Origin: Clostridiales bacterium
Lineage (GTDB): Bacteria > Bacillota > Clostridia > Christensenellales > JAISNN01
Direction of reading: 5' to 3'
Assembly (NCBI GenBank): GCA_031276195.1
Contig: JAISNN010000032.1
Span: 5,863 to 69,862, forward strand
Length of the DNA stretch: 64,000 nucleotides
Shown here: piece after piece, positions 7,269 to 64,000 of the stretch
How the letters are laid out: each line of letters starts with the position of its first letter
Numbering within the stretch: the first letter of the stretch is position 1
The notes under the pieces: generated by a model
What the model was told of the DNA's origin: nothing
Databases searched by the model: none
Seen by the model: only the letters and a program-made list of their open reading frames with translations
Position numbers and translations under genes: made by a program

Positions 7269-7285
7269 CGGGAAATATTCAAAAA

Positions 7286-47676: not shown

Positions 47677-48435
47677 AATTTCGACGTTTTAACGGCGGGG
47701 TTTCCTTGTCAGCCGTTCTCGGTAAGAGGAAAGCAACTCGGATTTAAAGATCCGCGCGGAAACTTATTTTTTGAGATTGCGCGGATAATAGATAAAAAGC
47801 GTCCGCAAGCCGTATTCCTTGAAAACGTCGCAAACCTTATGCGGCACGACGACGGCAAGACTTTTCTCGCGATATACGGCACGCTTGCGCGGTTGGGCTA
47901 TTACGTTACGTATAAAGTCCTCGACGCGCAAGAATACGGGGGCGCGCCGCAAAAGCGCGAGCGGATATTTATCGCCGCGTTTGAGAGTTACGAGGCGTGC
48001 GGGCGGTTTAGGTTTCCGGAACCTATGCCGCGGACGCTGTGTTTGAACGATTGTTTAAAGCGAACGGCAAAGCAAGAGAAGCCGTATTATTATACGTCCG
48101 AAAATTACTTATACGGGCAGTTAGAACGGATCGTTACCGATAGAGAGGCTTTGTATCTTATCACGGACGGCGGCGTTTCGGCAAAGAAATACTATATCGC
48201 TTCCGCTTTGAAGGCTAATATGGGAACTTTTCCGGATAGAATACCCGTTTTGCGCGACGATTACGGAGTAAGGAAACTTACCGAGGACGAATGCCTTGCC
48301 TTGCAAGGATTTCCGAAAGATTTTTCGTTTCCTAACGATATAACGAGAGAGGCGAAATATAAGCAGGCGGGAAATACGGTTTGCGTACCCGTCGTCGAGC
48401 GGATCGCCGAAAAAATAGCGGAGGCGTTGACGTGA
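47677..48435 (+). pseudogene. Second C5-cytosine methyltransferase, 5'-truncated (motifs IV-X)
   Basis: Open frame from 47677 reads NFDVLTAGFPCQPFS...VFLENVANLMRHDDG...PQKRERIF...RKLTEDECLALQGF...KQAGNTVCVPV; no motif I and in-frame TGA immediately upstream; first ATG at 47839. Confidence 0.75.
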
Positions 48436-48910: not shown

Positions 48911-48935
48911 TATTATATAAAGTAATTTAAGTTTT
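48911..48935. repeat. Left 25-bp direct repeat (putative target-site duplication)
   Basis: TATTATATAAAGTAATTTAAGTTTT, identical to 62305-62329 (identity extends one further T). Confidence 0.9.
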
Positions 48936-49137
48936 TGTAAAATTGTCAATCCCTTTTTAATAATTTTTTAAAAAAATTTAATTTTTACATAAAGAATGGA
49001 GGTGCTCTTAGACTTTTGGAGGTGCGTGAGGAAACTTTTCTTAGAAAAGGTGCCTCACGGAGAGAAAATGTTAAAAAATTTATAGCACAAAAAGCCTATC
49101 AGATAGGATAAGCACAAAAAGAAGATGAAGTGTTAAG

Positions 49138-50118
49138 TTATTCGACTACTCCCCAATCTAATAACAGCAGTTCTTTACGTTTTTCTTTTGGCGTGAGCCA
49201 TTTTCTCAATTTATCACGCGAAGAAAGAACGGAGCTGGGAATATTATTAGAACGTTTCAAATAACTTTTCATTTGTTTAAACAAATCGGCATAAGAATAA
49301 AACTTCAATTTGACATAAAACCGCTCGTTATCGTTACGGTGGGAACGCTCGACCTTTCCGTTATGCCTCGGTGTCCGCGGGCGGATCAATTTATGTTTAA
49401 TCTTAAATTTATCACAAGCGATATCGAAGGCATGCTTTTCTTTTTTCTTCGGAAATAAAGTATATGTAAATTCTTGCCCGTTATCGGTTTGAACGATATC
49501 GGGTACATAACCGAAATAAGCGATTGCGCGTTTTAAAAAATCGACCGAAGAACCAGAATACTGTTCTCGATACGGATATATAAAACGTTCGCGCGTCGCC
49601 TCGTCGATAGCCGTATACTGATAAAACCGCATATCGGAATATTCCCCGGTGTAACATTCACAAGGAACGACCTTTACGTCTATCTGCATTTTAACGCCGA
49701 TTTGTTCGGGAGTATCATAAGGTTTAGGAACATATTTTGGTTTTTTTCGTTTCTTAACGGAATAATATCCGATCCGGCAAAGAAAACGGTAAAGCGTAAC
49801 CGGATCACGAACATATGAATGTTTAGAGCGAAGTTTGCCGTATAACTCGTTTAATCCGATATCCGGATTACGCCGAATCAAATTTGATATATTCTTAATC
49901 TCGTCGGCGGTTTGAGCGCGCGGATGAGGACTAAGCGGACGGGAAGATTTATTAAAAAGTGATTCGATCGTTCCGTCATATTGTCTACGCCAACGATAAA
50001 TAGATTGAACGGTACAATGATACCTCAAAGCGACATCGTCAATCCGTGCGTGTTGGCTCAAATTCAAAATTTTCAATTTTTCTTCCGGCGAAAAAGGTTT
50101 ATTATAATGCCTCGACAT
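49138..50118 (-). CDS. IS481-like DDE transposase/integrase (HTH plus rve core)
   Basis: N-terminal HTH 'VALRYHCTVQSIYRWRRQY'; catalytic 'MQIDVK', 'VQTDNGQEF', 'RPRTPRHNGKVERSHR'. Confidence 0.9.
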   Translation of the reverse strand: MSRHYNKPFSPEEKLKILNLSQHARIDDVALRYHCTVQSIYRWRRQYDGTIESLFNKSSRPLSPHPRAQTADEIKNISNLIRRNPDIGLNELYGKLRSKHSYVRDPVTLYRFLCRIGYYSVKKRKKPKYVPKPYDTPEQIGVKMQIDVKVVPCECYTGEYSDMRFYQYTAIDEATRERFIYPYREQYSGSSVDFLKRAIAYFGYVPDIVQTDNGQEFTYTLFPKKKEKHAFDIACDKFKIKHKLIRPRTPRHNGKVERSHRNDNERFYVKLKFYSYADLFKQMKSYLKRSNNIPSSVLSSRDKLRKWLTPKEKRKELLLLDWGVVE

Positions 50119-50181
50119 AATTTCCTCCTAAAAAAGCGCGATATTTTCATACCGCGCTTTTTTGCATTTTATATTATAATT

Positions 50182-50805
50182 TTATTTTTTTGAATAATTA
50201 AAAATTAATCGCGGCATTTTATCATTCAGCCTCTTAATATCGTCCTCTTCCAAATTAATTAAATTAAAGCCGTTATTCTCATAAAGAGATATTTTATATT
50301 CTTTTCTATTTGCGTAATAATCATTGTTTTTTACGCCCCAAAATTCTATGTATATATCATTATTAGGTAAATAAAAATCTGACAATACATTTTCGTCGGG
50401 ATTTTTAGGAAGAAATACGCTTTTTTCATAAGCGTGAACATAACCGTTATGATAAAGCCAATTATCGATAATAACTTCGGAATATGAACGGACATAATGC
50501 CCGTCGTCGCATTGATGAGCGGCTTCCCATTTTTTGCGCGGATCGTCGTTAGAAAAATCTTCTCGTTTGATAATTACTTGTTTGGTATATTGCTCCGGCT
50601 TATATATCCTTTTCTCCGTTTTTTCAATAATAGTTTTTTCAACTTTTATTTCAGGATTGCATTTATGCCCGTCTTTTGCTTTATACCAAATCTTACAATC
50701 AGGGCATTGCACGACCTCGCCGCTGTCCCGCAATTTAAAGCAATTAACGCAAATAGGATACATTCCGCTTGGATGTCCGCATATTTGACACACTTTTCCC
50801 GCCAT
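50182..50805 (-). CDS. Zinc-finger plus PD-(D/E)XK-like putative nuclease
   Basis: CQIC, CVNC, CPDC; 'DGHYVRSYSEVIIDNWLY...HAYE...SDFYLP...YIEFWG'; RBS AAGGAG before ATG 50805. Confidence 0.7.
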   Translation of the reverse strand: MAGKVCQICGHPSGMYPICVNCFKLRDSGEVVQCPDCKIWYKAKDGHKCNPEIKVEKTIIEKTEKRIYKPEQYTKQVIIKREDFSNDDPRKKWEAAHQCDDGHYVRSYSEVIIDNWLYHNGYVHAYEKSVFLPKNPDENVLSDFYLPNNDIYIEFWGVKNNDYYANRKEYKISLYENNGFNLINLEEDDIKRLNDKMPRLIFNYSKK

Positions 50806-50861
50806 AATTTTACACTCCTTATAAAAGAGCGCGTAAAATACAAAAAGTGCGCTCTCTCGCT

Positions 50862-50998
50862 TTGTTACCACACAAATAAAAAACGCCGCCGCTTTTTACA
50901 TACGAAAAAGACACACCTTCTGCCGAATTAAAAAGGCGGCGCGTATATTTTATTTGTGTGGTAACAATAGTATAACATACGGCGAAATTAAAAGTCAA
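50862..50998 (-). promoter_or_regulatory. Promoter followed by a long inverted-repeat leader
   Basis: Minus strand TTGACT-N18-TATACT; 20-bp perfect IR TTGTTACCACACAAATAAAA (50862-50881 / 50948-50967). Confidence 0.6.
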
Positions 50999-51071
50999 TA
51001 ATATATAATACATTTTGTAATACAAAGTTTTTAAAAAACATTTTAAAAAAACGGCTAAGAGTACTACACGC

Positions 51072-51119
51072 GCCCTTGTATTTTAACAAGCGGCGCGCCG
51101 GCGGCGCGCCGACAAGGGC
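51072..51119. other. Candidate rolling-circle double-strand origin (nested hairpins)
   Basis: GCCCTTGT...ACAAGGGC enclosing CTTGT-ATTTTA-ACAAG and CGGCGCGCCG-G-CGGCGCGCCG, ~180 bp downstream of rep. Confidence 0.5.
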
Positions 51120-51299
51120 AACAACGATTTACACGATACCCGAAACGGACAAGGGACGGTTTTGCCGCTAAACCGCTCAGCAAAAACCGCCCCAAAATAG
51201 ACCGAAATCGGGTCTTAAAAATGACAAATCACACCGTCAAACGACAGTGCTAAAAAAATTGTTATTTTGTTAAAGGAAAAAATGAAAATCAAACTACCG

Positions 51300-52502
51300 T
51301 CAGCAATTGAGTTCGGTCATCGTATCGTATACGGGAATGTCCTCGTCCTCAAAAACATCGTCCCACAAAATAAATTTAACGCAAAAATCAAATATCCGCA
51401 TAGCGATATCGTCGGAACTTAATTCCGTTTCGATCTCGGTAGGCAAAGAAAAAGAATAAAACAACCGCTCGTCGGTCTTGCCCATATATTTCCATATATA
51501 TTCCATAGCGGGACGGTAAGCGGAACGGGAACGACCGTTTATCGGAGCAAAATCGTTCCGTCCGAAAGTATCGTAAAAAAAACTGTTTCGATTCCGCGTT
51601 TCCATACGGCGGCTTTCCGGATTATACTCCCTCGTCTCGCGTATTACGCCTATCATTTGCCCTTCGGGAATAAAAAACAAGCCGTGAAAATGTATGCGGT
51701 CGGTCTTTTTTCCGCGCTCTTTGACGACGGCATATTTCCAACCGCGACGCGTATGTAAATTTGACAGACATTTTTTAAGTTTGCGCTCGAAGTCGTAAAC
51801 GGAACACTTCTTGTCGTCGCAAGTAAAAGTAACGAAATGCGTCCAAGGATTGATATACGCCTTACGACGAAAACGCTTCTTGCGTTCGTATAGATTTTTT
51901 TCCTTGCGCTCGATACGCTCCGCAATATACGTATCGTAAAGAGGATTATCTCCGAAGCGGTCAATCAGAGCGGACTTTATATATTCACATCTTGCCGCGC
52001 CTTTCAACTTTTTATTAAAACATTCCAAGTACAAAGCGTCAAAATGAAAATCAATAACGCCGCGTTGCCGCCAAACTTTACACTCGATACGGTACGCAAT
52101 ATATGCGTCGAGAGTAAAACTATGCTTGCCGAGAACGACAGAGAGATACCACTCGGAATATTTGGAAATCAGACCGCCGCGGATATGAAGAAATTGCGCG
52201 GTTTGAGAAAGACCTTGCTCCATACTCTCCGAATAGAGCAAAGAAAAATACGGATCAAATTCAAGACGGCGTGAAACTTTATTTTTAATCGGCAAAGCGA
52301 TACGATGACGAGCGCCGTCCGCATAGACCTTATATTTTGTCTTGCCGTTATCGCTTTTCTTTTGTTTGCCGGGAAATTCGGATACGGAAAAAACGGGCTT
52401 TTCATTAGTCGCGGTAAGCCCGTATTCAACTTGCTTTTCCAAAGGTAGCGGACAAGACGCGTCCAACGGAATATCCAAAAAATCAAACTGTTTTAAAAAC
52501 AT
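51300..52502 (-). CDS. HUH rolling-circle replication initiator
   Basis: Motif I 'HFVTFT', motif II 'RIHFHGLF', motif III 'EYIWKYMGK'; start chosen at MFLKQF (RBS GAAGGTG). Confidence 0.85.
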   Translation of the reverse strand: MFLKQFDFLDIPLDASCPLPLEKQVEYGLTATNEKPVFSVSEFPGKQKKSDNGKTKYKVYADGARHRIALPIKNKVSRRLEFDPYFSLLYSESMEQGLSQTAQFLHIRGGLISKYSEWYLSVVLGKHSFTLDAYIAYRIECKVWRQRGVIDFHFDALYLECFNKKLKGAARCEYIKSALIDRFGDNPLYDTYIAERIERKEKNLYERKKRFRRKAYINPWTHFVTFTCDDKKCSVYDFERKLKKCLSNLHTRRGWKYAVVKERGKKTDRIHFHGLFFIPEGQMIGVIRETREYNPESRRMETRNRNSFFYDTFGRNDFAPINGRSRSAYRPAMEYIWKYMGKTDERLFYSFSLPTEIETELSSDDIAMRIFDFCVKFILWDDVFEDEDIPVYDTMTELNC

Positions 52503-52804
52503 ACAAACACCTTCGTAACACGTTCGCTTGCGGGTGTAAACGGGCAAGCGGCTGTATTTTTCGCCCGCGAAAAATCTCCGCCGGCAACTTCTTTTCACTC
52601 CGTGAAAAGTATGCCCCGTTGACACGCCGCATTTTTTGCGCTTTTATATCGTCGCCGAAAGCGACAACGGGAAGATAAACTATCAAACAAGCCGCTTTCG
52701 GAACGAATATTGTAGCGCAAAAAAACGCTCTCTCGCCGCGAGGAAATTATCCGGTTTCCTTTTTGCCTCAGCGATCCGAAAAGATAAACGGTAAGCTTAC
52801 CGCT

Positions 52805-53008
52805 TTACATATCACTATCGCCGCTTTTTGTAAACTCAAAGAGTTTATCGGAATTTTGCAACAAAAACTCGAAAAAATCTCCGAAACTGCATTTACCGCT
52901 ATATCCTTGCAAAGCGATAAAAGAACAAAACCGATCGAATTTGTTAGTCAAAAGCGAACGACTAACACGAACCGAAAGCAATTTATCACGGTATAAATCA
53001 AAAAACAT
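52805..53008 (-). CDS. Small hypothetical protein (67 aa)
   Basis: MFFDLYRDKLL...; RBS-like AAGGT upstream; co-oriented with the element's genes. Confidence 0.5.
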   Translation of the reverse strand: MFFDLYRDKLLSVRVSRSLLTNKFDRFCSFIALQGYSGKCSFGDFFEFLLQNSDKLFEFTKSGDSDM

Positions 53009-53047
53009 AACTTTTTTTACCTTTTTTAAAATTTTTCGCAGAAATCG

Positions 53048-53156
53048 TTGACTTTCTACATTTAAAGGCATATAATACTAATACAAAGTAACCGACGGTA
53101 ACGGACGGCTTACAGTTTTGGATCCCGGCTTTCGCAAGATTGCTGGGAGTCTTTTA
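53048..53156 (+). ncRNA. Promoter plus ~75-nt candidate sRNA, convergent with ORF 53154-53510
   Basis: TTGACT-N17-TATAAT (53048-53076); GTAACCG...CGGCTTAC stem; terminator GATCCCGGC...GCTGGGAGTC-TTTT; no ORF inside. Confidence 0.65.
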
Positions 53157-53510
53157 TTTTGACGAAAATTTACCAATAAAAAACTTATGCCTACGTTTTA
53201 TTTTCTTTTTATCTATATCTTTTATATCAATAACTTTAACATTATTTACCGAAAGGCGATTAACCCCCGACCAGCGGGAAAAATTAGCGTCATAAAAAGG
53301 AATAGGATAAACATAACCTTTTCTAATTTTATTAATCCGATTATTGTTAAACCCGTCTTTGTCCTCCAAAGAAGTAACGACGTTAACGTTACATTTATCG
53401 CCGGAAAGTTCGCGGATATAGACATAATGTCCGCCGCTTTTATTGATACCTAAATCCTTGTTATCGCAATAACCGATTTTACCGACGAGAGATTTTTTTA
53501 ATTTGCTCAT
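53154..53510 (-). CDS. Small basic hypothetical protein, possibly a divergent PemK/MazF/ToxN fold
   Basis: 118 aa; 'GGHYVYIRE...VNVVTSLE' spacing resembles the PemK core; RBS AAGGAG. Confidence 0.55.
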   Translation of the reverse strand: MSKLKKSLVGKIGYCDNKDLGINKSGGHYVYIRELSGDKCNVNVVTSLEDKDGFNNNRINKIRKGYVYPIPFYDANFSRWSGVNRLSVNNVKVIDIKDIDKKKIKRRHKFFIGKFSSK

Positions 53511-53515
53511 AATTT

Positions 53516-55666
53516 TTACTCCTTTTCATTGTCGAGATATTTAAATAACTCGTTTACAAAATAACTGTTTTGACCTTTAAGCTCATCGAAACTCGCTTTT
53601 TCGGTTTCGTATTCTTTAACGTCCGCGATACCTACGGCGGAACGAAAAGTTTTTGTAAAAAAATAATCGCTGAAACAATCGGTAGAAAAACGGCGGGAAT
53701 AAATTTTCTTATTCATAAGATAATAAGTATGCTTCTCAACATTACCGTCAAGCGTACCTTGCTCCACTTCAAGAGCGAGTCGACAAAAACCGAAAGTGTT
53801 ATATATACGCTTGTAATAAGTATTTAATTTACCCGCAATACTTTTTAACATATAAATCAAAAGCGAATTATCGCCGCGCAAATAACGCATTTCGCGATAA
53901 AAATTCACGAAACGGGAAAAAATTAAATCATACAATAATTCCTCCACAAAAAACAAAGGCAAAGCGAGAATCTGATCGGAGCCGCCGCGGATATGAACGA
54001 TATTACATAACTCTCTCGCGTCCGCTCCCAAACTTTCGGGACGCTGTTCGTCAAGCAAAACCTTTACGAAAGGAAAAAAATCGACGGTAGAAGAATGTCT
54101 GATCATTTTCAAGAAAAAATTAAAACCGTCGTTCTTTTGGTTCGCGGTAAGATCGGTCTTCTTTAAACCTTGATTCTCGACTTGATTTCCGCGCTCCTTG
54201 CCGGCTTCGGTTATAACCAAAGCCCCGAAATCAAAAGAATCACGGTTAAAATTATCCTCGATAACTCTGCGCCCTAAACGGATAGCGTCAAAATCAAGAA
54301 TATGGGAATGACGGCTATACGCTGCCATAAGACGGGAATCCCGTCGAAAAAAATCATCGTTCCATAACGGGAAATTACCGACGTCGGAAATTACAACGTC
54401 CTCGCGGATTGAATAATTTGAAACTAAAAGCGAACTTTCAATCACATAAATAAAATACAACAAAGCATATGTTTCCAAAACATCCCAAAGTCCGCTTATT
54501 TCAAGCCCGTTGTTATAATACAAACCATACCTCTTAAAGTCATAACCGAAACAATCCTCCGATTTACCGCTTCTTTCAAAAATTTCACGCCGCCGGGAAA
54601 CAAAAGTCCGGCAAGTAGCAAGATTATATACCTCGTGAGCCGCAAAAGCGGAGCGCAAATCTAATTCAAAAATAATCCACGGAAAATAAGGAAATTTAAG
54701 ATCGTTTTCAAGCAGTAAGGAAAAAGCCTTATCGCGAAAAATATATGTCTGTGATAAAGCCATATCGGTCATTAGCGTAGTTTTTTTCTTGCCCATCGTA
54801 CCGACGATCATATTTACAATCGGAAGTGAATTAATAAACCCGCGATCGCGAAGTTCATAACGACGAAGAACGGAATAAGCTATTTTACGGCGGAAATAAT
54901 CGAATAAGAAAACCGCCGATCCGACCCAAAAATACCACGGCACAATGCGTAGCGGAATAGCAAGATCAACTATAAATCTATAAATCTGAGAATAAAAGAT
55001 ACCGAAATCAAAACTAACGACAAAATAAAACAAAAAAGCAAGAATAGATAAAACAACCGTCATCAAATTTAAATTTATAGCCCAAATAAAAAGCCAAAGC
55101 TTAAAATATACCGTGTGGTCACGCAAAAAAGAAAAAAAGCCGGATAAAAAATTGCGAAAGGGAATATATAAAATACGGGATACGCGCTTAACAAATTTAA
55201 GCGGAAAAGTATCTCTGTCATAATTGTTATTTTGCTTTTTAACGGAATTATATATAACAAAAACAAGAAGTATCAACACGGGTAAAAAAAGCGTTACGAC
55301 GGTCAAAACTCTGTATAGCAAAAGCCCGACAAAAGCGGCATAAGCCGAAAAATTTGCTTTGGTAAAAAGTAAAGACCAAAGCGCGGAAAATTTTTCAACA
55401 AAACCCGAATAGTCGGACGGAAAAGAAACGGTGATATCGGACGGCGGCAAAATCGACGGCTGCGCTACCGTGGGAGTTACCTCGAAAGGCAAATAAAACA
55501 GTTCGCAAAAATAATAACCGAGCGAATTCAAAAAATCCTTTAAAGCCAAAAAAGAACGCGACAGCGAATCTTGAAAAAAGAAAATCCCGCACAGCACAAA
55601 AATCACGGTCAAAAAACCGCAAATAAAATGCCGAAACTCAAATAATTTTATTTTTTCAAAACCCAC
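53516..55666 (-). CDS. pI/Zot-like morphogenesis ATPase with N-terminal transmembrane segments
   Basis: About four TM segments, then Walker A 'IVGTMGKKKTT', Walker B-like 'ALVITE', 'KMIRH' and 'LLDEQRPESLGADAREL' (Zot-like Q/R motifs). Confidence 0.7.
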   Translation of the reverse strand: MGFEKIKLFEFRHFICGFLTVIFVLCGIFFFQDSLSRSFLALKDFLNSLGYYFCELFYLPFEVTPTVAQPSILPPSDITVSFPSDYSGFVEKFSALWSLLFTKANFSAYAAFVGLLLYRVLTVVTLFLPVLILLVFVIYNSVKKQNNNYDRDTFPLKFVKRVSRILYIPFRNFLSGFFSFLRDHTVYFKLWLFIWAINLNLMTVVLSILAFLFYFVVSFDFGIFYSQIYRFIVDLAIPLRIVPWYFWVGSAVFLFDYFRRKIAYSVLRRYELRDRGFINSLPIVNMIVGTMGKKKTTLMTDMALSQTYIFRDKAFSLLLENDLKFPYFPWIIFELDLRSAFAAHEVYNLATCRTFVSRRREIFERSGKSEDCFGYDFKRYGLYYNNGLEISGLWDVLETYALLYFIYVIESSLLVSNYSIREDVVISDVGNFPLWNDDFFRRDSRLMAAYSRHSHILDFDAIRLGRRVIEDNFNRDSFDFGALVITEAGKERGNQVENQGLKKTDLTANQKNDGFNFFLKMIRHSSTVDFFPFVKVLLDEQRPESLGADARELCNIVHIRGGSDQILALPLFFVEELLYDLIFSRFVNFYREMRYLRGDNSLLIYMLKSIAGKLNTYYKRIYNTFGFCRLALEVEQGTLDGNVEKHTYYLMNKKIYSRRFSTDCFSDYFFTKTFRSAVGIADVKEYETEKASFDELKGQNSYFVNELFKYLDNEKE

Positions 55667-55687
55667 CGTCGCACTCCTTTTTGCTTC

Positions 55688-55783
55688 TCAAAAAATTTGC
55701 TTATACGTAAAAACAACGTAACCGACGAGTACGCAAAATATGAGAAATATAACGAGAGCAATAATATTCTTTACTTTTTTCAT
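55688..55783 (-). CDS. 31-aa single-TM peptide (candidate small virion protein)
   Basis: Manual translation MKKVKNIIALVIFLIFCVLVGYVVFTYKQIF; below the ORF-track cutoff; directly upstream of the ATPase; weak RBS. Confidence 0.55.
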   Translation of the reverse strand: MKKVKNIIALVIFLIFCVLVGYVVFTYKQIF

Positions 55784-55811
55784 ATTTTTCAATTTTTTTC
55801 ATCAAAAACTA

Positions 55812-55929
55812 TTGACTTTCAAAACTTTATACAGTATAATAAGCAATAGTTAAACGATTCAATCGTTTATTCCCGCCGATATTGGATTGCGGCATTGCCC
55901 CGAACGGATTAGTTTCGGGGATTTTTTTT
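55812..55929 (+). ncRNA. Promoter plus ~80-nt candidate sRNA, convergent with ORF 55909-56352
   Basis: TTGACT-N17-TATAAT (55812-55840); hairpin TAAACGA-TTCAA-TCGTTTA; terminator CCCCGAA...TTCGGGG-A-T8 overlapping the ORF's stop codon. Confidence 0.65.
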
Positions 55930-56352
55930 ACCTCGAAATATATCCATTTTCTTACGGTTTTCAAGTGAAGGAATAGAACTTTTAAAAACTTTATTTCTAA
56001 TCTTCTCTACATCTTGACCCGACACATCCATATTAGGATGATTTTCACGAAATTTCTTATTTACACGTATCGGCGCGCCCTCGTCATCTTGTATCTCTAC
56101 ATAATGCTTAAAATACGATTGACCCTGCTGATAATTTTTTAATCGCGTACGGTTTTTACCGTCGCGCGAAGAAAGCGGAACGACAGCAAGATCGTTTCGT
56201 TCATTTGCCTCAATCACCACAACAGGACGTTCCTTTACAGAACCCGTACACTTTCCGCTAAAATAATTATCATGAGTTATCAATGTTCTGCCTTGCGGTA
56301 CTCTACCGTTTACGGTTCTATTCTTATTTAATCGTTTCCTATTTTTACTCAT
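55909..56352 (-). CDS. PemK/MazF-like protein without adjacent protein antitoxin
   Basis: 'KERPVVVIE....LAVVPLSS' matches the PemK core K-x-RP-hhh ... hhP-h-S/T; RBS AAGGAG. Confidence 0.7.
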   Translation of the reverse strand: MSKNRKRLNKNRTVNGRVPQGRTLITHDNYFSGKCTGSVKERPVVVIEANERNDLAVVPLSSRDGKNRTRLKNYQQGQSYFKHYVEIQDDEGAPIRVNKKFRENHPNMDVSGQDVEKIRNKVFKSSIPSLENRKKMDIFRGKKNPRN

Positions 56353-56391
56353 AATCGTTTACTCCTTATCGTTTTTTAACGGTTTTAATAA

Positions 56392-58446
56392 TTACTTTCT
56401 CTTTTTGTATTTTCCTTTAATCCCATCCAAATAGATTTTATTGACGATCTTATTTTTCCTTCGTCCGGACGGCTTTAACAAACCGAGTCCGCCGAATAAT
56501 ACGGACAAAACGGACGGAACAAGGGTTGCCACGGCATACAAAATAAGTATTAAAAGAATAATACCTAAAACCCACTTTAAAATTTCCAATAATTCTTGCC
56601 ACCAATCACCGACGTCAAAAATACCGGTAGGAGGCGTTAAACCGGGCAACACGTCTATCGGGTCGGAAACGGCGGGTATAACCCGATAAACGCCGTCGCG
56701 CGCAAACGTCAAAGAAATTATATCGAAATTAAAAAAGTCGGTAGTCTGAACCGTATACGCTTGACCGGACCAATGAGAATCTAACGGACGATAAAACTCA
56801 TGCTTATAAATATCGAGCGGGAAACCGTCATAAGACGTTTGAGCAAATCTAAAAAGATAAGTATGCTGTCCCGCCGTATAAGCTTGATTTTGTATCACGG
56901 AATAATCGTCTTCCGAGATAAAAAGATTATCCCAATAATGATCGTTATTAGGAATAAAATTTGTAACATCCTCAATCATCTTAACGTTTGTAAACGTCGT
57001 TCCATAATTTTTACCGTCTTGACCGAAAATAATATTCCAAATATTTTTAATATTTACCGTCCCGCCGACGGAAAGATATGCGTCGTCAACGGTAAAATCA
57101 TATAAATTATAGCCCCTTGTCCTACCGGTATCTACGGCGCTATCCCAATAAACGGATCGGATAAACTGTCCGCCGTCAGAAAAAGCCAAATCATTACCGA
57201 AACGATCTTTTAAATATGTATTATACTCCTCGGTCCGCGCAAAATCGGTCTCTAAAAAATTCTTAATATCCGACGGCTTAACGACTAAATCGGAACTATA
57301 AAAGTACCAATACAATTTATCCAAATACGGACCGCCGTTAACGCCGGGAATACCGATAATGTAAGGATTCCAAGCCCACCACCAAGTGGGAATATTAGTT
57401 CCGTCAAAAAGATAATTATAATATAAACTCCGCGCATCATCGGAAAGATCCTCGGCGGTAGACAATCCCAGACGGCCCGGGATATAATTATTCAGCGCGC
57501 CGCTGGACGAAACCACAATAGGCTTAGTTTTATACTCATACCACTCCGCACGAATCCCGTACAAGTCTCCGTAAGTGTTAATATAATAATCGGGTACGGA
57601 AAAATATACGGAAGTAAGTTGATCCTCGGCATAATCTCCGCGCTCCGGATTATCGGTGCGCCAATATGTATCCTTAACTTCAAGAGATACCGTTTCCATA
57701 TCGGTAACGGAACTTATCAGCGTGCTATCGGCGTATCCGTCGGCTCCATACCCGGACGCAAAGCCCTTAAAAATATAAGAACCGCCTACGGCGTGATCAA
57801 CGGATTTATTTTTATTAACACCGTTTGCCGCGGCATTATCGTAACGAAATTCAATACCGGATATATCATAACGGCGTTCGCAATTATCCAATACCACGCC
57901 GGATAAATTCTGATCGCGAACTGATTCGGTAACTCTTTTTAAAATCGTTTTACCGTTTACGGCAGCATGATCTATAACGCGATATTTATAAAATAAACCG
58001 GCATAATCTCCGGAGGAAACCGAACAAAATTTCAATTGAAATTTTTCATAAGAATCAGGAATGCCGTTGCCGTCGTAAGACGTTGCAATTTCTATTCTGT
58101 CGGTCATAGAAGTTTTATTAAAACTAAAACCTTGCGGATTGTAAATATAAAGATAAAGACAATAATTTATTTGAGCGTTAGCGTAATAACTGTAACAATA
58201 TTCAACAAAACTTAAAACGGATAGTTTATGTTCGCTCCCGTCGGAATCATAAGGATAATCGGATAAATCAAAAGGTTCACCGTTGACCGTAGAAAATATC
58301 AAATCGTCTAAAACGTACGTACCGTCAAAACCATTCTTTTCCGACAAAGCGAAAGAAAACCCGGATATATCTAAAAACGGTATACCCGAACAAAAAATAA
58401 CAAAAAATGCGACGAATAAAAACATAAAAAATTTCTTACGTATCAT
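56392..58446 (-). CDS. Large surface protein with N-terminal signal/TM and C-terminal TM anchor (pIII/spike-like topology)
   Basis: 684 aa; hydrophobic N-terminus, 'WVLGIILLILILYAVATLV' near the C-terminus then a basic tail. Confidence 0.7.
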   Translation of the reverse strand: MIRKKFFMFLFVAFFVIFCSGIPFLDISGFSFALSEKNGFDGTYVLDDLIFSTVNGEPFDLSDYPYDSDGSEHKLSVLSFVEYCYSYYANAQINYCLYLYIYNPQGFSFNKTSMTDRIEIATSYDGNGIPDSYEKFQLKFCSVSSGDYAGLFYKYRVIDHAAVNGKTILKRVTESVRDQNLSGVVLDNCERRYDISGIEFRYDNAAANGVNKNKSVDHAVGGSYIFKGFASGYGADGYADSTLISSVTDMETVSLEVKDTYWRTDNPERGDYAEDQLTSVYFSVPDYYINTYGDLYGIRAEWYEYKTKPIVVSSSGALNNYIPGRLGLSTAEDLSDDARSLYYNYLFDGTNIPTWWWAWNPYIIGIPGVNGGPYLDKLYWYFYSSDLVVKPSDIKNFLETDFARTEEYNTYLKDRFGNDLAFSDGGQFIRSVYWDSAVDTGRTRGYNLYDFTVDDAYLSVGGTVNIKNIWNIIFGQDGKNYGTTFTNVKMIEDVTNFIPNNDHYWDNLFISEDDYSVIQNQAYTAGQHTYLFRFAQTSYDGFPLDIYKHEFYRPLDSHWSGQAYTVQTTDFFNFDIISLTFARDGVYRVIPAVSDPIDVLPGLTPPTGIFDVGDWWQELLEILKWVLGIILLILILYAVATLVPSVLSVLFGGLGLLKPSGRRKNKIVNKIYLDGIKGKYKKRK

Positions 58447-58453
58447 AACAACC

Positions 58454-59041
58454 TCAAAAATTAATTTGATTAATATCCAAAATCACAGATTGAACGGGAA
58501 CAACATTATTAAATTCTATATAAACAACAGACGCTCCGTTATCGGGGATTACTTCAAGCAAAAAGTATAAATGAGCCGCAGTCAAAACGGAAGACATAAC
58601 GACTTCCGAATCGGAATACAAAGATTGCAACACCTCCGACATAGATTTATCAACGGACATAATAAAATAATCACCTTGACCGTCTATATCAAAAGCGACG
58701 GATAAATCTAAAATTTTACTAAACAAATGCGGCGCACCGTCAACATAAAAAACAAAATCATCAGCGGCCGACACATTCGGCAAAACTCTTACGGTGTACC
58801 CGCTCGGCTTCTCAACCGCTAAAAAATCCAAAGTATATCGACAATCAAAACGCACGGAAGCCCTGTCAAACTCAACCTTGTTCCCCGATCCCATATAAAA
58901 AACACCGTCGTAAACAACGTAAAAAGTTTCAAAACCGGTCGTAAAATTACGAGTAAACATAGACAAAAAACCGATTAAAAACATAACCGCTAATGAAAAT
59001 AAAACGCCGAATATTATTTTAGATAAAAACTTCTTACGCAT
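58454..59041 (-). CDS. Hypothetical protein with N-terminal TM anchor
   Basis: 195 aa, 'IIFGVLFSLAVMFLIGFLSMF'; closely coupled to its neighbours. Confidence 0.7.
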   Translation of the reverse strand: MRKKFLSKIIFGVLFSLAVMFLIGFLSMFTRNFTTGFETFYVVYDGVFYMGSGNKVEFDRASVRFDCRYTLDFLAVEKPSGYTVRVLPNVSAADDFVFYVDGAPHLFSKILDLSVAFDIDGQGDYFIMSVDKSMSEVLQSLYSDSEVVMSSVLTAAHLYFLLEVIPDNGASVVYIEFNNVVPVQSVILDINQINF

Positions 59042-59043
59042 AA

Positions 59044-60606
59044 TTAGCTCCCAAATAAAAATGATATATCGTAATATACAATAGAATCATCATCAAAAAT
59101 AACAAAAAGATAGTCACCGACAAGAGACAAATCACGAATAGAATTTTCAAAAGTATGATACACCCAATTAAAACCGTCGGTAGAATACGCCAAAGTAAAA
59201 TTAAAATACGAAAATAAAAAACCGTAATCTTCACAACCACAAAAATCAAAATGAGAATCCTTAGAAAAAGGTTCCTTAAAATAATTAATCCAATTATAAC
59301 CGTCAGAACTATAAATAGAAGTAAAGACAGCCGTATTACTCGAAGCCGATAAAACTACAACTTTTCCGTCTATAAAAAAATAAGAAAAATAAGTAGACGA
59401 AAAACCGACACTAAGAGAAACGGACGTAAAAGTTTCACCGTCGAAACTAACATAAAAACGATCTTTTCCTAAACCAAAAATATAAAATACATCATTATAA
59501 ACATAAAAAGTACGAGCAGAAAAATCTAAAATTTCAGCCCAATTAGTTAAGTCGGAGGAACGGTACACCGAATCAATGCCGCAAAAATAATAGTAACCGT
59601 TAAAATAAAACAAACCTTTGTCATTACCATAACGATCAAAAGAAGAAGACCCCGATATCCAATTCTCACAATCATAACTATATCGATAAGAAAAACGCAA
59701 ATGACGAGAACCATAAACAAAATAAACACCATTAACATAAGAAAAACTAAATCGATTAAAAGAAAAGTTACTATCACCGGAAAAAGCAAAATAAAAATTC
59801 ACACAATCAAAAGTATAATAAAGACTATTATTATATGAAAAGAAAAATCTATCGTTTAAATAATCCATATAAATATAACGATCAATTTCTTGGAACGAAG
59901 TCGAATCGTTTAAATCTGATCCGAAATAATAAGAAGAAGCAGAGGAGCCGGGAGACGAAGGCGCACTAACAATATATAAACCGTTACCATAAACGAGAGG
60001 AACCCGAATAGAATTACTATCGGATAAAGCAAGAGAATAATCGCTCGGATTATCCAAAAAACTTGTATATTTAACGATACACTCGGCATACACTTCCGGA
60101 TTACTGACCGAACTCGCCCGAATGATAATATCCTCGCCAAAAACCTGCAAAAACGACACCTCCGCAGAATTAGACCCGGATTCGGCAACATCAACACTAA
60201 TATAATCAAATACGTCCTTATCAATTATCCACGACGAAATGGGATTAAACCAATAAGTCAACCACTCAATATCAGAATTAGTCGCGTCAAACGGATCAAG
60301 CTCCGCCGTCAATAAAACGACAGAGCCATCGGAAGCAATAGAAGTAGAAGTCATAAAAAAACCATCGGCAACAGATAAAAACGGAAAATTTTCAACCTCT
60401 TCACCGCCGGAATCTGCATTGTCTTCATTATCGCCGATATCAGAAACGGGAATCACCGGATCGATTTTATTTTCATCGTCGACAATTATATTTTGACGAT
60501 CCTCAGGAACATCGTTAAAATATAACGAATAAACTAAAACTCCGATAAGCGCGATTAAAATCACGCTTATAACGACAATCAAAGTAATTTTAATTTTCTT
60601 ATCCAT
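59044..60606 (-). CDS. Membrane-anchored protein with Ig-like domain and Asp-box (BNR) repeats
   Basis: N-terminal TM; 'LTAELDPFDATNSDIEW...IRASS...AECIV' Ig-like region; SYDCENW, SSDLTNW, SFDGETF, SSDGYNW, STDGFNW. Confidence 0.7.
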   Translation of the reverse strand: MDKKIKITLIVVISVILIALIGVLVYSLYFNDVPEDRQNIIVDDENKIDPVIPVSDIGDNEDNADSGGEEVENFPFLSVADGFFMTSTSIASDGSVVLLTAELDPFDATNSDIEWLTYWFNPISSWIIDKDVFDYISVDVAESGSNSAEVSFLQVFGEDIIIRASSVSNPEVYAECIVKYTSFLDNPSDYSLALSDSNSIRVPLVYGNGLYIVSAPSSPGSSASSYYFGSDLNDSTSFQEIDRYIYMDYLNDRFFFSYNNSLYYTFDCVNFYFAFSGDSNFSFNRFSFSYVNGVYFVYGSRHLRFSYRYSYDCENWISGSSSFDRYGNDKGLFYFNGYYYFCGIDSVYRSSDLTNWAEILDFSARTFYVYNDVFYIFGLGKDRFYVSFDGETFTSVSLSVGFSSTYFSYFFIDGKVVVLSASSNTAVFTSIYSSDGYNWINYFKEPFSKDSHFDFCGCEDYGFLFSYFNFTLAYSTDGFNWVYHTFENSIRDLSLVGDYLFVIFDDDSIVYYDISFLFGS

Positions 60607-60653
60607 ACAAAAAAACCTACTTTAAATAAAAATTATCTTTTAAATTTTTTGCC

Positions 60654-61565
60654 CTAATTTACTTTCTTTCCAAGTTCTATAATCGTCGCGACTATAACGG
60701 ACATTTTATTATCAATTTCATGCAAATACTCCATATTCGCAGACAACATATCACTCAGCAATACATGAAAATCCACATAGTTGCTCAAAGAATAACCCAT
60801 AAATCCTTGATAAAATTGATATAAAGCATACGCTTCATTGCGTCTTTCTAACTTTTCGGCAACTTCGGCTTCATAATTAGGATTAGACAAAATACCGGTA
60901 TTGGCTTCATAAACCGAAACGATATAAGAATAATATGTATAAAGCAAATCAACCGCGTAAACATCTTCATACACGGCATCACGAGTAAATATATGATTGC
61001 CGCTACCCAATATCTCCGAACCGTCCGTCGTTTCATAAAGATTTAATCCGGCTTTACAGCGTTGATAAAAAGAAAAATTAATATCATAAGCATTAGACGG
61101 AAAATACCCAGAACCAAAAGCGGATCTATACGTATTTAATTGGCTTGAAGTAATACCTAACACATTATACATATATTCGATACTACTAACGTAAATCATT
61201 GAGGAATATAATGAATCCGCTAAACTATAAGCATCCGAAACTTCACTAAACGAGCGGTCAATTAATATTCTTAATTGTTCATTCTCCGCTTCAACGGCAA
61301 GTTTCATATCTTGATACGCTTCAAGTTCACTTTCAAGTAACGTTATAACCTCCGCGTAAGAAACCTCGCCGTCAACCGGTGAAGATTGATCGGTTTTAAA
61401 CATATCGAAAGCAAAAACCGACAAACCGGACATTAAAACGACTAAAAACATAATCGATATGACGGAAACAAAACTCGGACGGGTTAAAATTTTTAAAACG
61501 GAACCCGAACCGCCGCGCAAACGATTCCTAAGTTTTTGAAACTTACCATTAAATTTTTGCTTCAT
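60654..61565 (-). CDS. Hypothetical protein with N-terminal TM and coiled-coil
   Basis: 303 aa; RBS GAGGTG; 'VISIMFLVVLMSGLSVFAF' then heptad-like stretch. Confidence 0.7.
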   Translation of the reverse strand: MKQKFNGKFQKLRNRLRGGSGSVLKILTRPSFVSVISIMFLVVLMSGLSVFAFDMFKTDQSSPVDGEVSYAEVITLLESELEAYQDMKLAVEAENEQLRILIDRSFSEVSDAYSLADSLYSSMIYVSSIEYMYNVLGITSSQLNTYRSAFGSGYFPSNAYDINFSFYQRCKAGLNLYETTDGSEILGSGNHIFTRDAVYEDVYAVDLLYTYYSYIVSVYEANTGILSNPNYEAEVAEKLERRNEAYALYQFYQGFMGYSLSNYVDFHVLLSDMLSANMEYLHEIDNKMSVIVATIIELGKKVN

Positions 61566-61644
61566 AAAACACCTCTTTTTTGATTTTTACTAAATTAAAA
61601 AAATAGGGGATATTACAAAAAACATAATACCCCCTTTAAACAAA

Positions 61645-62160
61645 TTACATAGAAGACAAAACCATTTCAAGCAAATTTTTATCCGACGTTTCTTTCGGCT
61701 TTATTTGCGCCTTATAAACGCCCGTATCGTCAATATTACGGGCATAATAATACATACCGCGCTTAGTAATCTTGCCGGTACGATTGTCCTTAACGGTATA
61801 AGACTCCAAGATAAGTTCAGCGTTCAAAGCGTCGCCGAAAACAAAATCAAGAACCTCATACCCGCCGATATCAAGAGGAACAAAATCCACACGGGAAGAA
61901 CGACCGCGCAAATTAAACCTCAAAAAATAATTACGGTAATCTTTCTTGTTCGCTCCGCGCACAACTTCACGCTCGATAAACAATCCCGTCGCAATTCCGT
62001 CAACCGTTTCGACGATTCCCTCCGAAAAAACGGCACCCTTTTCCGCGCCGCTCGATTCCGCTTCGCTTGTTTCCGCTGCAACCTTTTTTACTTCCGCTTC
62101 GCTTGCTTCCGTTGCAATTTTTTTCGCTTCCGCTTCCACTTCCGCTACAATTTTAGACAT
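61645..62160 (-). CDS. Soluble hypothetical protein, first gene of the element (possible ssDNA-binding protein)
   Basis: 171 aa; strong RBS AAGGAG; acidic repeat N-terminus, aromatic/basic beta-rich core; SSB role is a guess from position. Confidence 0.65.
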   Translation of the reverse strand: MSKIVAEVEAEAKKIATEASEAEVKKVAAETSEAESSGAEKGAVFSEGIVETVDGIATGLFIEREVVRGANKKDYRNYFLRFNLRGRSSRVDFVPLDIGGYEVLDFVFGDALNAELILESYTVKDNRTGKITKRGMYYYARNIDDTGVYKAQIKPKETSDKNLLEMVLSSM

Positions 62161-62263
62161 AGATTTACTCCTTTCCCCTAAAATCCATTAGAGGCAATGT
62201 TTTTATTCGGCTCACGCCGTATGGTAAAACTCTTATCGCATAGTTTTAATGCGCAAAATAAAA

Positions 62264-62293
62264 AATAGATGTGTTAAAATTAACACATCTATT
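62264..62293. promoter_or_regulatory. Perfect 14-bp inverted repeat at the right end of the element
   Basis: AATAGATGTGTTAA-AA-TTAACACATCTATT. Confidence 0.65.
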
Positions 62294-62304
62294 GTAATAC
62301 AACA

Positions 62305-62329
62305 TATTATATAAAGTAATTTAAGTTTT
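62305..62329. repeat. Right 25-bp direct repeat (putative target-site duplication)
   Basis: Identical to 48911-48935. Confidence 0.9.
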
Positions 62330-62577
62330 TATATTGATTTTTTTTGCGTTATTTGGTATAATGGTATAAATTGATTTTTTAAACGGCGTATTCGTCGTTT
62401 TGATATACGGTATACGGATTAAACGGCGGGATTTCGTATTTTGTGTGATAGTGCGCGGATTAAACGGCGGGATTTCGTATTTTGTGTGATAATATGCGGA
62501 TTAAACGGTTGAATCCGGTATTTTATATAACCGTATATAAACCGACGGTATATAAATTCCGCTTAAATCGGAGAGGT

Positions 62578-63516
62578 ATGATGACGGATTTTTTTAACGG
62601 GCTTGTCAAGGTTTTGTCTTATGTCGGGCCGGGGTATGTTTTCGTTTTGTTTTCTGCGGCGGTTGCCGCGGCTTTTTTGGTTTCGCTTCGTTTTTCGTCG
62701 CGCGGTTTGAAGCGTTACGCGGACGCTATGCTTAGCGCCGCGGACTATCTCTCCGACGAAAGAACGGGTTCGCTCGGAAAGAACAACGCGGGTTATTTTT
62801 TCCGCAAATACGCCTGTGATTTTCCCGTCGCGATGCAAAACCGCGTCGCGGCGTATTTGAATTCTATGGAAGTAAAGCCATCCCGTTTTATCACCGAGGC
62901 GGACTGTTTAAAGCCCGTGTCTTTCGGCGCGGAACGAAAGAAATTTTTGACCGTATACGATATGATCGCGCGGACGGCTTTTGCCGCCGCGTCCGCTTTT
63001 TCGCTGGCATACGGCGGCGCGGAGGCTTTCGGGGCGGCGGCAGTCCTGCCGATGACCGCGGCGGTCGCGCTCAGGTATGTTTTGAAATTCAAAAACGATT
63101 CGCTGGACTCTTATCTGACGGACGCTTTTTATACCCTTATCGACGCTATGGACGCCGCCGTCGTTCTAAAAAACGATCCCGAGGACAAAAGTCAAGACGG
63201 AATTCTCAAAAAAGCGGCGGCTTTAATCAAGGAACTCGTGGACGAGGAGAGGGACGTCCAAAGATATCACTACATAAACGAAACGGACGGACTTTGCCGC
63301 GAGTTGAGAGGGGAACGCCTCAAAGAAATCGCCGACAACGTGGCGGTCGTGTGCGGCGAGGATACGCCGCTCGCGACGTTAAAACAGATTTTTAATATGC
63401 TTTCGGAATCGAAATATTTCTACGCGACCAAGGAGGAAACCGAACTGTTGAACGGCTGCCTTGTGAAACTGAAAAACACGATAATAAGAATCGAAAAGGA
63501 TATTATAAATTTGTAG
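62578..63516 (+). CDS. Hypothetical membrane protein (host-like codon usage resumes)
   Basis: RBS GGAGAGG before ATG-ATG; N-terminal TM plus two central hydrophobic segments. Confidence 0.65.
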   Translation: MMTDFFNGLVKVLSYVGPGYVFVLFSAAVAAAFLVSLRFSSRGLKRYADAMLSAADYLSDERTGSLGKNNAGYFFRKYACDFPVAMQNRVAAYLNSMEVKPSRFITEADCLKPVSFGAERKKFLTVYDMIARTAFAAASAFSLAYGGAEAFGAAAVLPMTAAVALRYVLKFKNDSLDSYLTDAFYTLIDAMDAAVVLKNDPEDKSQDGILKKAAALIKELVDEERDVQRYHYINETDGLCRELRGERLKEIADNVAVVCGEDTPLATLKQIFNMLSESKYFYATKEETELLNGCLVKLKNTIIRIEKDIINL

Positions 63517-64000
63517 GCATTCGGAATTTTAGGAATTTCCGCGTGAAAAAGGTAAGCGGAATAAAAAAGAGGAACTATAAATTTGTAAGTATTCGTAATT
63601 TTAGGAATTTCCGCGGAATGCCGTATTGTAAATTTTTACGCGCTTAAAATCGGCGTTTTGGGGATTTTTTAATCGGGTATGCCGAAAGTTTCACAACGGA
63701 TAAATAAATGCCGCGGAGAAAGCCGCGCTAAAACGCCGAGTAAAGGAAAAATAAGTAATTTTGTTTTTTAGGGGTGAAATAATTGACTTTTTTTTGCCGT
63801 TGGCTTATAATTTTCTTTGTATCCGTTGCAAAAAAATTGCCGGGTGTTTTTGTCTTATGACGGGCATACGGTTATTTATACGCCGTGTGAGGTGAGAGAA
63901 ATGCCAAAGAACGGTGAAACAGCCGTTTCGGACGACGGTTCGGGAAAAATCCGCGCCGCCGCCGCCGTAAAAAAACGGCAAAGACGGTTATTTATACGCC

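Follow-up and report, generated by a model that had tools for sequence, protein, structure and literature searches.

Can a toxin-like protein of the MazF/Kid fold be paired with a small RNA, with no protein antitoxin encoded beside it? This question is raised by a locus in a 64,000-nucleotide (nt) stretch of a Clostridiales bacterium contig (JAISNN010000032.1, positions 5,863 to 69,862; the whole stretch is referred to as the window). Here, an open reading frame (ORF) of 147 amino acids (aa), named c0, is faced on the opposite strand by a promoter, a short hairpin-rich sequence and a terminator, together named sRNA-1, and both parts lie within an integrated, inovirus-like element. Comparison with related loci indicates that the two very probably form a real, functionally coupled RNA-protein cassette. 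The initial annotation of the window had placed an ORF containing the stretch KERPVVVIE...VVPLSS at 55909-56352 on the minus strand, where it was indeed found. The features of the locus are as follows, with loci and genomes referred to below by L and G numbers.

55909-56352, minus strand: c0, candidate endoribonuclease toxin of 147 aa with a predicted MazF/Kid fold (ORF and AlphaFold2 [AF2] model)
56362-56367, minus strand: Shine-Dalgarno sequence AAGGAG of c0, 9 nt ahead of the ATG at 56352 (read from the sequence)
55812-55840, plus strand: sRNA-1 promoter, with −35 TTGACT (55812-55817), a 17-nt spacer and −10 TATAAT (55835-55840), matching the consensus at 11 of 12 positions
55847-55929, plus strand: sRNA-1, predicted, ~83 nt (start placed from the −10 hexamer, end from the U-run)
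55851-55869, plus strand: hairpin 1 of sRNA-1 (fold; 6/6 pairs with compensatory changes in 28 sequences)
55875-55893, plus strand: hairpin 2, the most variable in sequence, with its structure kept (2/4 pairs compensatory and 2 one-sided; 95.5% of cells paired)
55898-55929, plus strand: hairpin 3 and U-run, intrinsic terminator (8/8 pairs compensatory; 100% of cells paired)
55688-55792, minus strand: hydrophobic ORF of 34 aa, the next sense-strand gene past the small-RNA unit

The small-RNA gene facing c0

All of the signals that the initial annotation had read opposite c0 were recovered: a facing promoter (TTGACT-N17-TATAAT, 55812-55840, plus strand), a hairpin-rich stretch of ~80 nt, and a terminator overlapping the ORF by 21 nt. 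The predicted transcript (55847-55930, plus strand) folds into three hairpins at −23.9 kcal/mol (z = −1.95; 11 of 200 shuffled sequences fold equally well). Hairpin 3 proper (55898-55920) is followed by eight U (55922-55929), and the stop codon of c0 (55909-55911) lies in its loop. On the minus strand, no U-run stands 3′ of the terminator hairpin, and hairpin 3 should therefore not stop the c0 transcript.

Within the window alone, the promoter, fold, terminator and Pfam signals are not above chance. Promoter-like sites numbered 52 in a 15-kb region versus 41.4 ± 7.4 in shuffled sequences, and a simple terminator scan missed hairpin 3 of the window, while it flagged the equivalent in three of the four copies present in another genome (G068). 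By our reading, this miss is explained by a 7-base-pair stem closing a 9-nt loop, the limit of the scan being 8. The unit lies far above chance because it is conserved across related loci, with strong covariation. Rfam 15 gave no match at E ≤ 1 over 55812-55930, and on the G068 copies of sRNA-1 it returned only chance-level anti-hemB rows (19 bits versus a gathering score of 49.5). ARAGORN found no tRNA or tmRNA.

A facing unit of promoter, hairpins and U-run, on the opposite strand and at the c0 stop codon, was present in 19/19 related genome loci. TTGAC[T/A]-N17/18-TAnnnT occurred at the equivalent place in all 19, with differing spacer sequences. The stretch from promoter to terminator measured ~90 nt, except where an extra 5′ domain lengthened it to ~145 nt (four loci), and ended in a G+C-rich hairpin and a U-run. 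The RNA alignment comprised 15 of 20 units, the long forms (L003, L008, L010 and L014) and L016, which reads as L015, being left out. RNAalifold recovered three hairpins with compensatory changes in 11 of 17 pairs. The covariance model R1 scored 85.4 bits in the window (E = 4e-18, 55841-55929) and found exactly one copy per locus in 20/20 sources, on the opposite strand and adjoining c0; over the 2.27-Mb genome, it likewise found one copy. When extended to 28 sequences, the alignment had 96.2% of its cells paired and compensatory changes in 16 of 18 pairs, a result reached by 0 of 500 shuffles, while slid controls gave 28 to 53%. Covariation downstream of c0 across homologs, which the initial annotation had named as a check, is thus well supported. 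As G-U and U-G cells exceed A-C cells 10 to 1, the plus-strand RNA is the structured strand. Pairwise identity reached 0.74 in RNA columns that pair and 0.61 in those that do not, compared to 0.44 at the third codon positions of c0. Judged from these comparisons, what faces c0 is a genuine small-RNA gene, both conserved and structured, and its coupling to c0 is tight.

A long form of sRNA-1 (~145 nt; L003, L008, L010, L014 and L035 [G007]) carries an extra conserved 5′ domain with two or three hairpins before the core. It was found mainly with elements that encode a Zot-family ATPase.

The hairpins might instead act at the level of DNA, as a complementary-strand origin or packaging signal in single-stranded DNA, with the promoter hexamers being incidental. 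Filamentous phages have hairpin-rich origins and packaging signals in intergenic regions, and the element studied here has a rolling-circle Rep. However, known inoviruses package the coding strand, on which the 10 G-U cells would become C-A mismatches, and just one A-C cell was observed. Furthermore, 20/20 loci keep the U-run and both promoter hexamers (−35 and −10), the hexamers standing at a fixed distance around a spacer of variable sequence. Most related elements are without the unit, and it persists in chromosomal remnants and as an array of four copies. A DNA-level role is therefore very improbable.

Two further candidates were rejected. For a small protein encoded within the RNA unit, the overlapping short ORFs were common to two loci each (clusters c18 and c30), and the stem substitutions are compensatory. 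For trans pairing of sRNA-1 with the ribosome-binding region of c0, duplex energies in 20 loci gave no consistent site. The 9-nt spacer between the Shine-Dalgarno sequence and the ATG of c0 (56353-56361) is identical to the 5′ arm of hairpin 1 (55853-55861) and complementary to its 3′ arm. This is probably a coincidence, as no equivalent match was seen in the other loci read by eye.

Coupling, mobility and the host element

The 3′ end of sRNA-1 abuts the c0 stop codon in 20/20 loci; in 7 of them it overlaps c0 by 21 nt, in 12 by 2 nt and in 1 by −1 nt. Among metagenome loci, the RNA was present in 21/23, and in 21/21 of those having an intact c0 and downstream DNA. One of the two misses was cut by the contig end; in the other, c0 was truncated at about residue 92, where a recombinase gene joins it. 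Of 151 sampled genomes of the order, 7 had c0 and 6 had the RNA, and a convergent unit was present 3′ of c0 in 7/7 genomes with a c0 match. More divergent relatives of c0 still had RNA matches in G007 (E = 0.0024) and, as a two-hairpin form, in G120 (E = 0.066). A remnant in G032 likewise had a two-hairpin form, and the match at a remnant in G096 covered the first two hairpins only. Beside a distant c0 relative in G077, the RNA sequence was unrelated and the promoter-hairpin-U-run layout was kept.

The pair stays intact while the genes around it vary, both upstream (c2, c22, c9 or c32) and downstream (c1, the Zot-like c26 or Rep). In L011 and L017, it lies between c1 and Rep instead of ahead of c1, with Rep directly downstream in L017. 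Across loci, c0 is the best-conserved protein, being 61 to 78% identical to the window copy, compared to 27 to 51% for neighboring proteins. The gene c1, its usual downstream neighbor, was found in 17 of the 151 genomes, but together with c0 in only 2. As most c1-bearing genomes are without c0 (15/17), the pair is cargo and not a core part of the element. It is a mobile cassette, occupying different positions in different backbones of inovirus-like elements.

No protein antitoxin gene was found beside c0. Its upstream neighbor is a 684-aa ORF (56392-58446) that ends 40 nt before the c0 start codon, leaving no room for a small upstream ORF, in agreement with the initial annotation, which had seen none. 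No gene for a MazE/PemI-type antitoxin adjoins c0 upstream or downstream; the neighbors differ from locus to locus, and no small protein is conserved among them. Small hydrophobic ORFs similar to the 34-aa ORF of the window lie downstream of the RNA unit in several related loci.

The element that carries the pair contains the following main features.

48911-62333, no strand assigned: inovirus-like integrated element, ~13.4 kb, with 29-nt direct repeats at both ends
49138-50118, minus strand: rve integrase/transposase (family match)
51300-52625, minus strand: rolling-circle Rep, ORF2/G2P type (E = 4.6e-10)
53516-55666, minus strand: c1, a 716-aa membrane and P-loop protein (no Pfam or PHROG match)

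The direct repeats (48911-48939 and 62305-62333) are 97% identical and are probably an attachment-site duplication. All genes of the element are on the minus strand, and several others encode large secreted or membrane proteins without a family match. In related elements, a Zot-family ATPase (35.1 bits versus a cutoff of 20.3) takes the place of c1. Because Rep G2P is present and related elements encode Zot, the element is considered filamentous phage-like (inovirus-like), a context that the initial annotation had not noted. No terminal overlap, as in a circular phage genome, was found in the whole-contig loci L003, L010 and L013. The c0 family is distributed among genome bins of gut Clostridia and Christensenellales.

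Several other observations concern the element and its surroundings. Its left end adjoins a 5′-truncated C-5 cytosine methyltransferase gene (47839-48435; Pfam positions 116 to 323 only) and an HNH gene (46542-47306). A 229-aa element protein (50182-50871, minus strand) matches PADLOC PDC-S69 (E = 1e-36) and HEAT_CxxC_PD-DEXK (E = 3e-10) and, from these matches, may be a nuclease-type defense or accessory protein. Just upstream of its gene lies a perfect 20-nt inverted repeat (50862-50881/50948-50967) with a 66-nt spacer, which accounts for chance-level plant microRNA rows in Rfam. Outside the right end of the element are three tandem 41-nt repeats (62415-62537), two 40-nt repeats 72 nt apart (63504-63615) and a third TTGACT-N17-TATAAT (63783-63811). 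A second, partial c1 copy elsewhere in the genome of the window (G000, contig 55, 12725-13453; 73% identical, residues 474 to 716), without a second sRNA-1 match, probably belongs to a second related element or remnant.

The position of the pair suggests another role for the RNA, in phage regulation. As a counter-transcript, sRNA-1 could control the sense operon ahead of the genes for the assembly ATPase and Rep, whether by RNase III cleavage, by attenuation or by collision of promoters, thereby keeping the prophage quiet or immune to related elements; c0 would then be an RNA-processing or RNA-binding helper and not a growth-arresting toxin. The copy number of rolling-circle replicons is classically controlled by counter-transcripts of this sort, small and structured, with strong promoters. 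In most loci, sRNA-1 is the complement of the intergenic stretch immediately ahead of the c1 or Zot-like gene in the operon, a second convergent unit precedes Rep (53048-53165), and RNA alleles arrayed in an element that has no c0 would agree with immunity to incoming elements based on RNA. However, the RNA follows c0 and not the downstream gene, as the placement of the pair between c1 and Rep in L011 and L017 demonstrates, and the pair occurs in both c1-type and Zot-type backbones. A core regulator would not be expected to be missing from most of these elements, yet 15/17 c1-bearing genomes are without c0 and most have neither part. Furthermore, sRNA-1 adjoins c0 and is ~3.2 kb away from the Rep start, with c1 and a 118-aa gene between them, which does not fit a counter-transcript of a rep leader. 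The putative counterparts of catalytic residues are also kept across the c0 family. Regulation of the phage operon is thus an unlikely explanation.

RNA copies without an intact c0 were found in G147, on contig 1 of G099, and in G049, G040 and G068; four of the five other RNA-positive genomes are without c0. In G147 and on contig 1 of G099, the RNA still has a 3′ remnant of c0 next to it. In G049, in G040 and on contig 1 of G099, the RNA stands among ORFs matching none of the protein clusters of the element, and these copies are probably scars. An intact c0 without a convergent RNA was not seen among the genome and metagenome loci found via c0. Such an imbalance, in which the RNA is found alone and the intact gene is not, is what would be expected of an antidote and its poison. 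In G068 (L030, contig 9, 4100-5260, minus strand), eight small promoter-hairpin-terminator units form a row, in which four sRNA-1 alleles are interspersed with two further structured RNAs, each present twice. Like natural variants, the four alleles diverge from one another in hairpins 2 and 3. This genome has no c0; the array is convergent on a 121-aa ORF beside a Rep G2P gene, with its last unit overlapping ~90 nt of that ORF.

Unrelated convergent RNAs overlap the 3′ ends of other small genes of these elements as well. A second module of the same layout lies in the window, where a promoter (TTGACT-N17-TATAAT, 53048-53076, plus strand) heads a unit (53048-53165, plus strand) with an RNA of ~80 nt, two hairpins and a U-run (z = −2.33). 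The sequence of this RNA is unrelated to that of sRNA-1, and it overlaps the 3′ end of a basic 118-aa ORF (53154-53510, minus strand). Kinship between c0 and the 118-aa protein was not supported (BLASTP E = 25; hhalign E = 0.17; family versus family E = 0.02 at 2.3% probability). The 118-aa ORF aligns to a family of basic proteins of 100 to 195 aa with the motif GH..Y...T[HS]S, whose members include L011 6694-10241, L031 (G147) 7122-8335 and L015 10838-11170. Several of these genes have their own convergent promoter-hairpin-U-run unit, and in L011 three such modules, one of them c0 and sRNA-1, stand in a row between c1 and Rep. A profile of the GH..Y...T[HS]S family aligned with c0 co-linearly but not significantly (E = 0.02).

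The fold and family of c0

The identification of c0 as a PemK/MazF-like protein, made in the initial annotation from its sequence motif, was upheld by structure prediction. An AF2 model based on a diverse 62-row alignment had a mean predicted local distance difference test score (pLDDT) of 90 and a predicted template modeling score (pTM) of 0.83, whereas a shallow alignment of 23 close homologs gave an unusable model (pLDDT 41). The model is a soluble β-barrel with two helices. In a Foldseek search with this model, the best matches were all MazF/Kid proteins (probability 1.0, E from 4e-3), and the type III toxin CptN (4rmo_A) ranked 29. VIA-align superimposed the model on Escherichia coli MazF (5cr2_C) with a Z of 9.4 over 101 residues (root mean square deviation 3.4); the alignment spans model residues 14 to 131 and covers the whole chain. 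The best 50 VIA rows were all MazF/Kid family members. According to the model, c0 has the SH3-like barrel fold of MazF/Kid, with additional basic tails at the N and C termini.

A canonical MazF (122.6 bits) is encoded separately in the same genome. A weak profile alignment between it and c0 (hhalign, E = 0.15) placed R42 of c0 on the Arg of the IRP motif and S61 on the Thr of the ITS motif. In Bacillus MazF, Arg25 and Thr48 were shown to be catalytic (PMC7354611), and R42 and S61 are their counterparts in this weak alignment. R42 is conserved in 57 of 62 family members, and S or T occupies position 61 in 49 of 62. By its modeled fold, c0 is a candidate endoribonuclease toxin.

The family is large, with 370 relatives at E ≤ 0.001 in 90% identity clusters and 227 among 50% representatives; the best 120 relatives in the 90% clusters are 67 to 80% identical to c0. 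Among the matches listed, most relatives are nameless, the few named ones are called "hypothetical protein" or bear a nondescriptive label, and none has a Pfam annotation. All 23 close homologs fall below the threshold of the Pfam PemK_toxin family (PF02452; best E = 4.8e-4), and c0 itself matches phrog_1936, a MazF-like growth inhibitor, with an E of 0.0046. An IMG/VR scan with c0 gave 13 pattern matches, of which 0 were confirmed, and tblastn against INPHARED phages and PLSDB plasmids gave no match.

Possible neutralization by sRNA-1 and relation to known systems

The explanation we favor, tentatively and at slightly less than an even chance, is that sRNA-1 is a type I-like antisense antitoxin acting on the 3′ flank of the mRNA of a MazF-fold toxin. 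In this account, c0 and the facing unit form a two-part cargo cassette of inovirus-like elements in gut Clostridia. sRNA-1, ~83 nt long and with three hairpins, would be made constitutively and transcribed toward c0. The c0 transcript would not be terminated at the stop codon and would read into the complement of sRNA-1, as is expected from the lack of a U-run after the last hairpin on the sense strand; if it reads on, sRNA-1 is fully complementary to its flank. Pairing would probably start at the terminator loop and lower the stability or translation of the c0 mRNA, as in the 3′-overlapping type I pairs of Bacillus and Clostridioides. A type I-like RNA antitoxin would thereby be joined to an RNase toxin resembling those of types II and III. 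The cassette might stabilize the element or exclude competitors, and orphan RNAs and RNA allele arrays in elements without c0 might neutralize incoming cassettes.

An antisense mode is favored because the end of the RNA strictly abuts the stop codon, because the hairpins are diversified and a four-allele array exists, and because other small genes carry unrelated convergent RNAs in the same layout. The candidate RNA-antitoxin system proposed in the initial annotation is thus consistent with the fold and with the conserved, coupled RNA gene. Strict abutment and diversified alleles point more to antisense action than to protein binding of the ToxI kind.

Several results weigh against the antisense explanation. 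The ORF overlap is just −1 to 21 nt, so that pairing would need read-through from c0, which is predicted solely from the missing U-run. Conservation extends to unpaired linkers and to two G of the hairpin-3 loop, which is unneeded for antisense action in cis and fits a trans partner, e.g., a protein. Nor is c0 a small hydrophobic peptide, as type I toxins are by definition. Its relationship to MazF is distant: c0 matches PF02452 with 17.5 bits against a cutoff of 23.1 (E = 0.005, residues 40 to 69 only), and a profile of its close homologs found no MazF among PDB sequences, which makes c0 a remote branch of the MazF/Kid superfamily. Finally, related loci were located via c0, and the counts of loci given here are conditional on a recognizable c0. 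The genome and metagenome loci are also partly redundant, with L043 and L044 matching L003 and L004, and L015 and L016 are identical in the compared stretches (c0 protein, downstream DNA and small RNA).

The conserved loop and linker positions bring in direct binding, in which folded sRNA-1 would bind the MazF-fold protein and block its active site, as ToxI does with ToxN; the RNA would be a single unit with its own convergent promoter and would not be cut from an upstream repeat array. The RNA sequence, including the unpaired linkers and the two G of the hairpin-3 loop, is kept well above synonymous sites, protein and RNA are the best-conserved parts of the elements, and orphan RNAs necessarily act in trans. 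The fold is also shared with type III toxins: ToxN is described as Kid/MazF-like (PMC3401426), and CptN appears at rank 29 of the Foldseek list. However, the type III layout is missing, with no upstream tandem repeats and no terminator between repeats and gene. Protein binding needs no abutment on the opposite strand, yet abutment is seen in 20/20 loci. Likewise, one RNA should suffice for c0 proteins that are 61 to 80% identical, but diversification is seen in hairpins 2 and 3, and four different alleles are kept in G068. The unrelated RNAs found in the same layout at other small genes indicate that the layout, and not one RNA fold, is the shared principle. We consider direct binding improbable.

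The antisense reading draws on the type I pairs of Firmicutes. PMC6562991 and PMC6563280 describe 3′-overlapping pairs in Bacillus subtilis (txpA/RatA, bsrG/SR4, bsrE/SR5 and yonT/SR6) and Clostridioides difficile (CD2517.1/RCd8 and relatives), which are convergent on prophage-like DNA and consist of a toxin and an antitoxin with its own strong promoter and terminator, pairing at their 3′ ends. For bsrG/SR4, pairing is said there to begin at the SR4 terminator loop (PMC6562991), and RNase III cuts the type I duplex, with sites mapped near the stop codon in bsrE/SR5 (PMC6562991, PMC6563280). The c0 locus resembles these pairs in its convergent layout, in an antitoxin candidate with its own promoter and terminator, and in its location on prophage-like DNA. 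Therefore, the tail-to-tail layout noted in the initial annotation is present, but it is not novel, being usual for type I pairs of Firmicutes in these accounts. The unusual point is a 147-aa MazF-fold protein in the place where type I systems have a small membrane peptide: type I toxins are defined as small, hydrophobic and generally <60 aa (PMC6563280, PMC3401426). Whereas their toxins are hydrophobic peptides of 50 to 60 aa or fewer with long overlaps, c0 is predicted to be a soluble protein of 147 aa, with an overlap of −1 to 21 nt.

Type III systems (ToxIN, CptIN and TenpIN) share with the c0 locus a Kid/MazF-like endoribonuclease core and an RNA as the likely antidote. In type III loci, the toxin gene is preceded on its own strand by tandem repeats and a terminator, and the repeat array is processed by the toxin (PMC3401426). 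In contrast, sRNA-1 is a single, nonrepetitive gene that lies downstream on the opposite strand. Tandem Repeats Finder found no array in 55300-57400, only low-score, AT-rich rows of two to three copies, and the initial annotation was correct in setting the layout apart from type III. The modeled fold of c0 is also nearer to MazF/Kid than to CptN in Foldseek. With the type II systems MazEF, PemIK and Kis-Kid, c0 shares the fold (Z 9.4) and, by the weak alignment, counterparts of the catalytic Arg and Thr/Ser (PMC7354611). However, it has no adjoining MazE-like gene, scores below the Pfam cutoff and has basic tails, and a canonical MazF is encoded elsewhere in the genome.

Other systems offer partial parallels. 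In SymE/SymR and RalR/RalA, type I pairs with enzyme toxins, an RNA antitoxin controls a nuclease-type toxin. SymE has an AbrB-like fold, and its RNA antitoxin SymR overlaps the 5′ end of the gene. RalR/RalA of the rac prophage (PMC4041452) consists of an RNA antitoxin and a DNase toxin, with RalA acting via 16 nt of complementarity. They thus differ from c0 in the folds of their toxins, which are DNase and AbrB-like, and in the position of SymR at the 5′ and not the 3′ end. The antisense RNA aMEF of E. coli mazEF also acts on a MazF-family locus; as reported in PMC8749433, it tunes a complete type II locus with MazE and stimulates its expression, and it does not replace the protein antitoxin. 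In the literature covered, which excluded supplements and subscription journals, no account was found of a MazF-fold gene that has a convergent small RNA as its sole partner. Overall, the locus joins a fold seen in type II and type III toxins to a type I arrangement of genes; it departs from the defining layout of type III and from what defines a type I toxin, and it has no protein antitoxin as in type II.

The modules of similar layout invite a wider hypothesis, namely, a general toxin-antitoxin class in inovirus-like elements of gut Clostridia. It would comprise several small families directed at nucleic acids (MazF-fold c0, the GH..Y...T[HS]S proteins of 100 to 195 aa and the 121-aa protein), each with its own single-copy RNA facing the stop codon and neutralizing through both antisense pairing and direct binding. 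Orphan allele arrays, such as that of G068 with four sRNA-1 alleles and two other kinds of RNA, would be RNA immunity or antiaddiction loci against competing elements. In this full form, the hypothesis is doubtful.

The small RNA sRNA-1 constitutes a new RNA family outside Rfam with very clean covariation, and it is ready for annotation pipelines. Its partner belongs to a large, unnamed protein family residing in filamentous phage-like elements of abundant, poorly cultured gut Clostridia, where mobile elements may compete by means of RNA, as the orphan RNAs and the multi-allele array suggest. A MazF-fold protein with a convergent single-copy RNA as its only conserved partner would bridge types I, II and III, and, if this is true, toxin fold and antitoxin mode can be recombined.

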